Shown in pieces: positions 18,398 to 20,762 of a DNA stretch of 64,000 nt; the first letter of the stretch is position 1; each line of letters starts with the position of its first letter. The notes under the pieces were generated by a model. That model searched no databases. It was not told the DNA's origin and saw only the letters and a program-made list of their open reading frames with translations. Source of the stretch: an uncultured Candidatus Saccharibacteria bacterium. Its GTDB lineage: Bacteria > Patescibacteriota > Saccharimonadia > Saccharimonadales > Saccharimonadaceae. The stretch lies in contig CAUPWE010000004.1 in NCBI GenBank assembly GCA_963515375.1, positions 1,080-65,079 on the forward strand. Reading direction: 5' to 3'. Position numbers and translations under genes: made by a program.

Positions 18398-18973
18398 ATG
18401 ATTGCACATGTTTTTGGAAAAGTTGCCGAGAAGTTTAACGGGTCGTTGGTGATTGACGTTCACGGCGTTGGCTATGAAGTTAGCGTGGCGGCTGGTGATT
18501 TTGATGCGGTGATGCTGGATCAGGATGTGAAGTTTTATACCTATCATCATGTTCGCGAGCAGGCAGAAGAATTGTTTGGTTTTTCGAGTCTGGCGGCAAA
18601 GAAGCTGTTTGAAATGCTCATCACGGTTCAGGGTGTCGGTCCGAAAGCAGCGTTGGCAATTCTCAGCCTGGGTGACGCAGAGCACGTGCGCAATGCCATT
18701 GCTAATGCCGACAGTGCTTTTGTGCAAAAAGCTGCTGGCGTCGGCAAAAAAACTGCTGAGCGCGTAGTGGTTGATTTGAGTGATAAGGTTGGCTTGCCAA
18801 CGCGGTATGGTCGAGCGGACACGCCAGTCCAGGTTGAACTGAATACTTCTGATGAGGCACTGGAGGCACTGATGGCGCTGGGCTACACTTTGGCTGACGC
18901 TACCAAGGCGCTGGAAAATATCGATGTCAATCTGCCAACGGCGCAGCGGGTGACCGAGGCGCTGAAGAAATAG
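18398..18973 (+). CDS. ruvA: Holliday junction branch migration protein RuvA
   Basis: DVHGVGYEV, VQGVGPKAAL, GVGKKTAER and ALMALGY. Confidence 0.97.
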   Translation: MIAHVFGKVAEKFNGSLVIDVHGVGYEVSVAAGDFDAVMLDQDVKFYTYHHVREQAEELFGFSSLAAKKLFEMLITVQGVGPKAALAILSLGDAEHVRNAIANADSAFVQKAAGVGKKTAERVVVDLSDKVGLPTRYGRADTPVQVELNTSDEALEALMALGYTLADATKALENIDVNLPTAQRVTEALKK

Positions 18974-18982
18974 CGGATATAG

Positions 18983-19010
18983 AAAAAGGACGCTAAAAGC
19001 ATAGCGTCCT
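18983..19010 (-). terminator. Terminator between convergent ruvA and the DUF4352 gene
   Basis: AGGACGCTA-N6-TAGCGTCCT, followed by a T-run on the minus strand. Confidence 0.8.
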
Positions 19011-19030
19011 CATAATGATAATTAGTTTTC

Positions 19031-19579
19031 TTACGGCTCAATAATAATTTTCTTATTTGACCAGAATGACGGTTGGTAATGAATTTTGATTTTTGAATCT
19101 TTTGCAACCTCAAAAATGACAGAACCCTCTTTTTTACCGTTGACTGCCAGGTCGCCAGATCCCAGGCTATCGCTTGCGGTGAAGGCTGTACCACTTGGTC
19201 CTTCAATAGCACCGTTTGCATCCTCAATTTTCCAATCGAATGTATTGAAAGACAATTCGCTATTTGATTTGTTAACGATTGAAACGTTTGCTTTAACATA
19301 TTCTTTGCCATCGCTAGCTTTAATGAATTGATTGCCAGAGTTCCAATTGCGATCAATTGACTTGATTGTTACTTCTTTGCCGTCAAAAGCGATAGTTTCG
19401 CCAACTTTGAAAGTGGTCTTTTCGGATGGTTTATTCTCCGAAGTAGCGTTATTATTGTTCGAATTAACTACAGTGGCTTTGTTTTGCTGCGATGCGCTGT
19501 ATGCTCCAATCACAATAATAACAACAACTACCCAAAACCAAGCCTTTTTAAAAACTGGTTTTTTCTCTTTTGTGTTCAT
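19031..19579 (-). CDS. DUF4352 (Ig-like) membrane-anchored surface protein
   Basis: KKPVFKKAWFW plus TM; FKVGET, GKEYVKANVSIVN and LGSGDLAVNGKKEGSVIFEV. Confidence 0.85.
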   Translation of the reverse strand: MNTKEKKPVFKKAWFWVVVVIIVIGAYSASQQNKATVVNSNNNNATSENKPSEKTTFKVGETIAFDGKEVTIKSIDRNWNSGNQFIKASDGKEYVKANVSIVNKSNSELSFNTFDWKIEDANGAIEGPSGTAFTASDSLGSGDLAVNGKKEGSVIFEVAKDSKIKIHYQPSFWSNKKIIIEP

Positions 19580-19610
19580 TTTATCCCCTCCTATGAGATA
19601 TGCTGTCTAA

Positions 19611-19730
19611 CAAAAAGGACAGCCGTTAAATTTGGCTGTCTACACCTAGAACGCAAGTTTACGCTCAATAACGGCTGCCCATTATGCACGTAAACAATGC
19701 GCTCAAAACGCTTGGTTCTAGATGTAGACA
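19611..19730 (-). ncRNA. Structured 5' leader RNA / attenuator upstream of the DUF4352 gene
   Basis: 16-bp closing stem, nested hairpin, U-tailed terminator and 12-nt antiterminator complementarity; TACAAT -10 at 19736-19741. Confidence 0.7.
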
Positions 19731-19763
19731 CTCCTATTGTACTACAAATGATATAATTAGTTT

Positions 19764-20762
19764 ATGGCAATTCAAAGAATAGTCGATACCAGTCCGCACA
19801 GTGATGACGCCGAGGAGCAGCGGATTGAAGTCAGTCTGCGCCCGCAGAGTTTTAGCGAGTATGTCGGTCAGGAGCGATTGAAGCGTAATCTGCGGTTGGC
19901 GATTGAAGCGGCAAAGAAACGCGGCGAGCCGCTGGATCATGTGCTATTGTACGGCCCGCCAGGACTAGGCAAGACCACCATGGCGACAGTGATCGCCAAT
20001 GAGATGGGCACGAATTTACGGATTACCAGCGGCCCGGCCATTGAAAAGGCGGGTGATTTGGCGTCAATTTTGACGAATTTGGCGGACGGCGACATTTTGT
20101 TCATCGATGAAATTCATCGACTCGGCCGGGCAGTGGAAGAGATTTTATATTCGGCCATGGAAGATTTCAAGCTGGACATTGTCATCGGCAAGGGGCCGGC
20201 AGCTCGGTCGATTCGGCTGGATCTGCCGCGGTTTACGGTGATTGGTGCGACGACGCGGACGGGTAGTTTGGCGGCGCCACTGCGCGATCGATTCGGGCAT
20301 ATTTACCGCTTGGAGTTTTACGAGCCAGAGGATATCGCTAAAATTGTGACGCGGAGTGCGGCTATTTTAGAATCGTCAATTCGGCATGAAGCAGCAACCT
20401 TACTATCGACGCGGGCTCGCCTGACGCCGCGCATCGCCAACCGTCTGCTCAAGCGCGTGCGCGACTACGCCGACGTCAACGGTGATGGCATAATTGATGT
20501 GAAAACAACAACGAGCGCTTTGGAAATGCTAGAAGTGGATGAGCTGGGATTAGACCCAGCCGACCGTAATTTACTACAATCAATCCTGGAAAATTATGGC
20601 GACAATCCGGTGGGTCTAACCACCATTGCTGCGCTAACAGGCGACGAAGCGACAACGATTGAGGATTTTTATGAGCCGTATTTACTGCAAATCGGCTTCA
20701 TCGAGCGTACACCGCGCGGCCGCCGGGTAACGATTAAGGCGAAGCGGCATCTTCAGAAATAA
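19764..20762 (+). CDS. ruvB: Holliday junction branch migration helicase RuvB
   Basis: [29 protein letters not shown] and ERTPRGR. Confidence 0.99.

Follow-up and report, generated by a model that had tools for sequence, protein, structure and literature searches.

A structured leader RNA of Saccharibacteria with a guide complementary to its own tail, a candidate attenuator of accessory genes

Why should the gene of a membrane-anchored protein lying between ruvA and ruvB be preceded by an RNA that folds into a long rod and encloses, within that rod, a segment complementary to its own 3' tail? The question arises from the window, as we call the whole 64,000-nt stretch of Saccharibacteria DNA analyzed here, which is part of a genome of 785 kb with an estimated completeness of 98%. 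We find that the leader is a real structured RNA and one copy of a family that has no match in Rfam 15, and very probably it controls a terminator.

The leader cassette and its fold

The cassette lies on the minus strand between two plus-strand genes that are not part of it, ruvA on its left (18398..18973) and the divergent ruvB on its right (19764..20762), and comprises the leader RNA and a DUF4352 gene, with its own promoter and a terminator that closes it (18986..19011, minus strand). A -10-like box is also seen about 10 nt ahead of the ruvB start codon (window 19747-19764), and neighboring genes show the same arrangement, which suggests that ruvB and its neighbors may have leaderless or very short-leader messages.

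All further features are on the minus strand. From the conserved spacing to the -10 box TACAAT (19736..19741), transcription is predicted to start at G19729, the first base of the rod; the motif TAnnnT precedes the first G by 6-7 nt in 69 of the 73 homologs and in 42 of 45 new metagenome sequences, and this G is invariant in 73/73 homologs, but it served as the anchor of the alignment script. The rod is closed by stem P1, with its 5' strand at 19715..19729 and its 3' strand at 19638..19652, the final 3 nt of the latter being also the foot of a local hairpin. Within P1 the fold places a second stem, P2 (19689..19695 with 19657..19663), the 5' strand of which shows a compensatory change in locus L007, and a small side hairpin (19699..19711) that is variable and missing from minimal phage copies. 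The guide, GGGCAGCCGUUA (19669..19680), is preceded by a conserved AA and would represent the displaced 5' arm of a split terminator, the proposed 3' arm of which is the target, UAACGGCUGUCC (19617..19628). The target abuts the U-tract, five U after a C (19612..19616), and overlaps the local hairpin, GACAGCC-N9-GGCUGUC, which has 7 bp and a 9-nt loop (19618..19640) and is found in cargo-type copies only. A Shine-Dalgarno sequence (19585..19592) and the cargo gene follow, the latter encoding a 182-aa membrane-anchored DUF4352 protein (19031..19579; PF11611, E 8e-19). Part of the arm recurs a third time 3' of the U-tract, as GACAGC (19602..19607), and inspection by eye shows arm-like words after the U-tract and just ahead of the Shine-Dalgarno sequence in many homologs; once the polymerase has read through, such a copy could pair with the tail again and influence translation.

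A sequence-only reading of this DNA had named most of these elements, and all those it named, including TACAAT, GUUUACG/CGUAAAC, AUAAUGG/CCGUUAU, the hairpin, the Shine-Dalgarno sequence and the DUF4352 gene, are found on the minus strand exactly where it had seen them. Its long stem of 16 bp also stands for the strands 19730/29-15 and 19652-38/37, with one G-U pair, but shortens to 15 bp if transcription starts at G19729, as is most likely.

The predicted free energy of the leader fold is -51.1 kcal/mol, with a z-score of -5.85 (0/200 shuffles). A detector based on architecture alone, namely a -10 box, a stem closing the 5' end and, inside it, a segment able to pair with the bases that precede a U-tract, retrieves the window leader as its single site in the whole genome and nothing in a block-shuffled copy. 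The RNA is present in this genome in a single copy, for which reason we rejected a repeat or a miniature transposon. On the transcribed strand, P1 contains 94 G-U versus 2 A-C combinations among the 73 homologs, and it covaries at pairs 6-15. The invariant columns, several of them fixed by the search pattern, are all in helices or in the U-tract, and variants alter most of them; since every conserved base can be explained by base-pairing, there would be little left for a ligand pocket. The small apical hairpin, AUAAUGG/CCGUUAU, was discarded as a candidate for a conserved helix, its outer pairs showing no covariation.

Rod and local hairpin had been regarded in the sequence-only reading as mutually exclusive folds. 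In the usual sense they are not: no more than 3 bp (GUC/GAC/GUC) are common to P1 and the hairpin, and the rod fold and the local-hairpin fold are 0.5 kcal/mol apart in the window copy and 0.6 kcal/mol on average. The same reading had assigned the role of antiterminator to the guide and that of terminator to the local hairpin, an assignment not supported by the sister form described below, which mostly lacks the hairpin, or by the cost of a nested cis refold that pairs the guide with the tail, on average 12.8 kcal/mol worse.

Homologs, cargo genes and guide/target covariation

BLAST matched 7 of 36 genomes of the genus (one by the promoter and first 8 nt only) and, at E up to 0.05, 28 of 300 genomes of the family; among 20 BLAST loci inspected, 17 were genuine and 3 spurious. 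A pattern scan produced 6 viral, at least 118 genome and at least 116 metagenome matches. The titles of the 118 genome matches listed indicate 97 Saccharibacteria, 11 other Patescibacteria, 5 records with no group and 5 labeled as another phylum, one of which has a neighbor 65% identical to the window's genome; near-identical cassettes occur in records labeled Nanosynbacter or TM7. The 152 loci collected contained 112 distinct sequences, of which 109 could be anchored, and these were reduced to 73 representatives with <92% identity. With E limited to 1e-4, a covariance model detected the family in 43 of the 149 genomes of Saccharimonadales; outside this order it matched 4 of 143 genomes; 15 weak loci with E >1e-3 turned out to be ordinary terminators or coding DNA, and match L285, which sits in a coding region, was likewise set aside. 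Four virus records, estimated to be near complete, contain one copy apiece, and in L047 the cassette lies on the opposite strand within the tail genes, between those for an assembly chaperone and the tape measure. A phage collection outside Patescibacteria contained no match to the leader RNA.

Upstream of ruvB, 10 other genomes of the genus contain unrelated sequence in nine cases and, in one, a remnant driving another gene. Two remnants, L008:1480-1540 and L290 (upstream of ruvB), retain the same promoter and approximately the first 8 nt of the rod, followed by an unrelated gene for 181-189 aa, that of L008 having no Pfam or PHROG match; this looks like deletion of the leader combined with a gene swap. 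The cassette possesses its own promoter, gene and terminator and varies in insertion site, as do phage morons, and it stands alone in the window's 785-kb genome, where no recombinase domain was detected. We infer that it is a stand-alone accessory, moron-like remnant of Patescibacteria mobile elements.

A co-directional ORF begins within 150 nt of 68 of the 73 leaders, the other five having no called downstream ORF, and 43 of these 68 ORFs have an early hydrophobic segment, compared with 29% of the long ORFs in the window's genome. The cargo families comprise DUF4352, Ltp, DUF4190, DUF805, bPH_2, SHOCT, DUF2726, DNA methylases and an ArsR regulator, and the majority of the cargo genes have no Pfam match; because so many unrelated genes follow the homologs, the leader is not tied to DUF4352. 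The window's DUF4352 protein matches phrog_806 (E 5e-29), and also superinfection-exclusion PHROGs, weakly and along its N-terminal anchor only (E 5e-7 and 2e-6). The cargo of L007, a locus adjoining lepA, has the N-terminal anchor in common with that of the window and a swapped C-terminal domain. Behind the leaders of L043, L045, L046 and L062, in phages as well as genomes, there is a family of 51-61-aa membrane proteins, phrog_14499, of the moron class.

In the window copy, the guide is complementary to the target over 12 bp with one G-U pair, as the sequence-only reading had noticed, and across the family the guide has its complement in the 11-13 nt that precede the U-tract. The search pattern had fixed guide positions 1-8 and their partners, leaving positions 9-12 as the unbiased test. 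Positions 9, 10, 11 and 12 are paired in 71, 72, 66 and 55 of the 73 homologs, against 38, 41, 51 and 33 after shuffling, in counts that ignore kinship and hence treat relatives, which are not independent, as separate cases. The covariation score of guide and target is 0.911 versus 0.215 (0/500 shuffles; slid controls no higher than 0.204), and no pairing signal extends past guide position 12 in the 73 homologs. The result was replicated with 45 new metagenome sequences, in which positions 9-12 are paired in 44, 44, 43 and 40; 34 different words occur at these positions. RNAalifold selects the guide/target helix unaided, and variants found by the model, free of the pattern, covary also at the 5' end, at the pair adjoining the U-tract and through indels; locus L190 has an unrelated guide that is yet complementary to its own tail. 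The homologs and covariation by which the sequence-only reading could be checked were thus found, in 73 representatives for which downstream genes were also listed.

The local hairpin of cargo-type copies covaries too, its variable pairs being formed in 71-73 of 73 copies at positions that are partly pattern-fixed; L208, L221 and L190 have mismatches in this hairpin and retain the guide match. At L265:1353-1461 the guide is complementary over 18 nt, including the whole U-tract.

Leaders of large serine recombinases

Three of the weakest true matches (L175, L239 and L240) precede large serine recombinases, enzymes present in 115 of 351 genomes of the phylum. We took the best 30 recombinase loci of the 115 genomes with matches, 29 of which had enough upstream DNA (L241-L269), and found with a motif-free detector the same architecture within 240 nt upstream of the recombinase in 19 of 29; none of 87 shuffled sequences showed it, and 2 of the 29 reverse complements did. 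These sister leaders belong to tRNA-adjacent elements in many Patescibacteria families and lie 9-55 nt ahead of the matched recombinase start. In 13 of 16 loci scanned, a tRNA gene, which is the likely insertion site of the element, lies beside the 3' end of the recombinase, the leader being at its 5' side. Recombinase-type leaders have 17 distinct guides, with a duplex energy of -20.7 kcal/mol on their own target versus -11.2 on foreign ones; most of them lack the local terminator hairpin, and in 13 of 19 the target follows the rod with no intervening nucleotide. In two small integrated elements a recombinase-type leader occurs together with one of cargo type, and the guides of the two do not match.

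RNAalifold returned no consensus on the recombinase-type alignment, a failure that we attribute to its misaligned guides, those of 10 and 11 nt being shifted against each other; model R2 mostly recovered its own training set. A plasmid collection outside Patescibacteria gave no match to a recombinase-type RNA, and no viral relatives of the recombinase or its leader pattern were found; phage recombinases were <27% identical. In L243:1026-1221 and L257:3115-3355, group I intron-like matches just below cut-off are located where other loci carry the tRNA gene.

Proposed mechanism, its rivals and known systems

The conserved core of both forms is a GC-rich helix ending at the U-tract, with A residues ahead of the guide. 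Because the sister form mostly lacks the local hairpin, which leaves the guide/target duplex as the main strong helix at the U-tract, we read this duplex as what looks like the terminator itself, with its arms split, and the rod as a putative antiterminator. The rod would fold first and keep the guide away from its own tail, so that a lone transcript mostly reads through; a copy made earlier, either a read-through message or a released short RNA, would then pair its guide with the nascent tail of a later transcript and stop transcription. The predicted outcome is a burst of expression on entry of the DNA into a naive cell, followed by a self-imposed shut-off specific to the guide sequence, a pulse that would suit an integrase or a costly membrane protein. 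In cargo-type copies the local hairpin may shield finished tails from one another and set a basal rate of stopping. We hold this complete scheme, in which the guide of an earlier transcript stops nascent copies, only tentatively and at somewhat less than even chances.

The median net energy of binding in trans is -12.4 kcal/mol on an unfolded nascent tail and -7.0 kcal/mol on a finished cargo-type tail. Cells of Saccharibacteria measure 0.2-0.3 um, a size at which one molecule per cell computes to 0.1-0.4 uM. A duplex formed in trans next to a U-tract reportedly releases the polymerase in oligonucleotide studies. RNase III, a candidate for processing the leader, is encoded in the window's genome. 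In favor of the trans mechanism we count the guide/target covariation, the long and hinge-poor rod, which encloses the guide by a median of 28 bp and has no hinge-capable loop in 59 of 73 copies, the precedent of phage P4 CI (see below), the non-matching guides of the two leader types in two elements, and the lack of an antisense promoter. Across 73 + 19 copies, no conserved antisense -10 box forms a positional peak inside or after the leader, a test that weak promoters would escape, and for this reason we also reject a countertranscript reading. Against it we count the cost of opening the guide, about 6.6 kcal/mol and 8.7 in the window copy, the small energy gap of a pseudoknot formed in cis, and the cross-reaction of guides, for no more than 32 of 73 of which the own target was the best match or shared first place. 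The absence of the hinge in just 9 of 19 recombinase-type leaders and the missing RNAalifold consensus there count in the same direction.

The cis pseudoknot is at the center of the main rival, a two-state switch in which opening of the P1 foot lets the guide form the terminator with its own tail, and a protein, an RNA or a ligand, for instance from a helper phage, tips the balance. Covariation of guide and target is equally expected here, every guide matches its own tail, and in many recombinase-type leaders the guide continues directly into the 3' strand of the stem around it, resembling an H-type pseudoknot; a rough calculation with the P1 foot open puts this state at a median of merely 5.6 kcal/mol above the best fold, at 3 kcal/mol or less in 17 of 73 copies and at +2.5 in the window copy. 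However, P1 and P2 are finished before the tail is transcribed, the 0-nt linker between rod and target in 13/19 suggests that both helices coexist and stack, a non-systematic look at the neighbors of the leaders showed no shared partner gene, the 73 + 19 copies yielded no antisense promoter, and the window's genome contains a lone cassette with no recombinase. We consider the cis switch less likely than not, if still to be taken seriously. Clearly less probable is an ON switch of riboswitch type, in which the local hairpin terminates and the guide antiterminates by capturing its 3' arm, even though the 7-bp hairpin is retained and covaries in cargo-type copies (at partly pattern-fixed positions) and the guide duplex outweighs it in strength. 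The sister form, mostly without a hairpin, has nothing to antiterminate; the hairpins of L208, L221 and L190 are mismatched while the guide match stays; a helix ending at the U-tract has the geometry of a terminator; and a freely varying guide argues against a ligand pocket.

We find it just as improbable that the RNA is the product of a stand-alone sRNA gene, with guide/tail pairing protecting the 3' end or building dimers and the downstream gene expressed by leakage. The promoter, the paired 5' end and the U-tract would fit a stable RNA, the analogous LOOT RNA is filed by Rfam as 'Gene; sRNA', and 5/73 leaders have no called downstream ORF; but 68/73 have a co-directional one within 150 nt, the recombinase form lies only 9-55 nt ahead of the matched recombinase start, and in the remnants L008 and L290 the promoter persists in the absence of the RNA and drives another gene. 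That the element acts as DNA, as an attachment site, a cassette end or a miniature inverted-repeat element, is very improbable indeed: the long inverted repeat, patchy distribution and proximity to recombinases invite such a view, and against it are the excess of G-U (94) over A-C (2) in P1 on the transcribed strand, the constant spacing to the -10 box, the one copy in the window's genome and the position of the leader at the 5' side of the recombinase, with the tRNA gene, the likely insertion site, at the 3' end in 13/16.

Returning to the split terminator completed in trans, we compared the leader with known RNAs. Rfam 15 recognizes only 9 tRNAs in the window and nothing over the leader at E up to 10, and in 20 + 10 + 16 homolog loci there is no match near cut-off over the RNA, which upholds the earlier opinion that this structured, conserved leader is no known riboswitch. 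Resemblances to SRP, 6S, 5S, retron and attC elements were dropped, there being no Rfam match or partner gene, and so was a metabolite riboswitch, with no invariant unpaired core and functionally unrelated genes downstream. In fluoride, ZTP and guanidine-IV riboswitches a pseudoknot competes with the terminator, a loop pairing with terminator sequence; the leader differs from them by having no Rfam match, a freely varying guide and no metabolic theme downstream. The antisense RNA of pT181-type attenuators is a countertranscript that binds upstream and frees a normal hairpin. Base-pairing decides termination in the leaders of these mobile elements and loop sequence can change specificity, but a separate antisense RNA is required (PMC3753616); such a countertranscript has its own promoter, whereas no conserved antisense -10 box accompanies our leader.

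By analogy, the nearest mechanistic precedent is P4 CI, an RNA that derives from the phage's own leader and pairs with sites in that leader, causing early termination (PMC4825925). As in P4 CI and P1 c4, a likeness that the sequence-only reading had aptly drawn for the probable logic, the leader RNA is complementary to a site within itself. P4 CI is, however, processed out, uses sites on both sides and precedes replication genes, whereas our leader has one guide matching the strand that touches the U-tract and precedes cargo or integrase genes; Rfam models of C4 type do not match the window leader or the homolog loci tested.

LOOT RNA (RF03000) also occurs in Saccharimonadales, above cut-off in 22 of 150 genomes and at other loci, is similar in size and has the same sort of membrane genes downstream. 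In 20 of 28 LOOT loci, counted with no shuffle control, a segment of the long hairpin pairs over 8-14 nt with the tail that precedes a U-tract and falls outside Rfam's model (L419-L448, e.g. L425, L427 and L448). The LOOT fold is nevertheless a row of several hairpins and not one rod closing the 5' end; the best LOOT match in the window's genome has 11.8 bits, on another contig, for a cut-off of 46.4, and reciprocally the covariance model of the leader matches 0 of 29 LOOT loci. The two are different families with a like loop/tail pairing. LOOT function is not discussed in the main text of its source paper (PMC5737381), and the present comparison offers a testable function for this orphan motif. 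It is possible, if speculative, that Patescibacteria mobile elements share a protein-free, 'self-counting' attenuator in at least three unrelated folds (leader family, recombinase leader and LOOT), the guides of which would act as orthogonal immunity types and which would be workable where one RNA per ultrasmall cell amounts to 0.1-0.4 uM.

The leader belongs to an uncatalogued, widespread regulatory RNA family and is probably a novel form of RNA-guided attenuation. RNA-based regulation in Patescibacteria is almost undescribed. Present in over one quarter of the Saccharimonadales genomes searched, a family that gates integrases, methylases and surface proteins would give these epibionts a principal point of control over the genes they acquire horizontally; if the trans mechanism is true, it would also constitute a compact, sequence-programmable, protein-free module of negative feedback with natural orthogonal variants. 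The literature searched, mostly without supplements, holds no description of the motif, and two preprints (bioRxiv 10.64898/2026.10.21.760802 and 10.64898/2026.10.06.756255) do not mention it. The candidates HMP2_132 and HMP2_384, listed with 76 and 54 nt in the tabulated part of another study (Fremin and Bhatt 2021, PMC8040213), are situated near Ltp, DUF4352 and tape-measure genes, one of them being labeled as Saccharibacteria. This gene setting resembles that of L046 and L047, and as compared by table description the two candidates may be fragments of the leader family.
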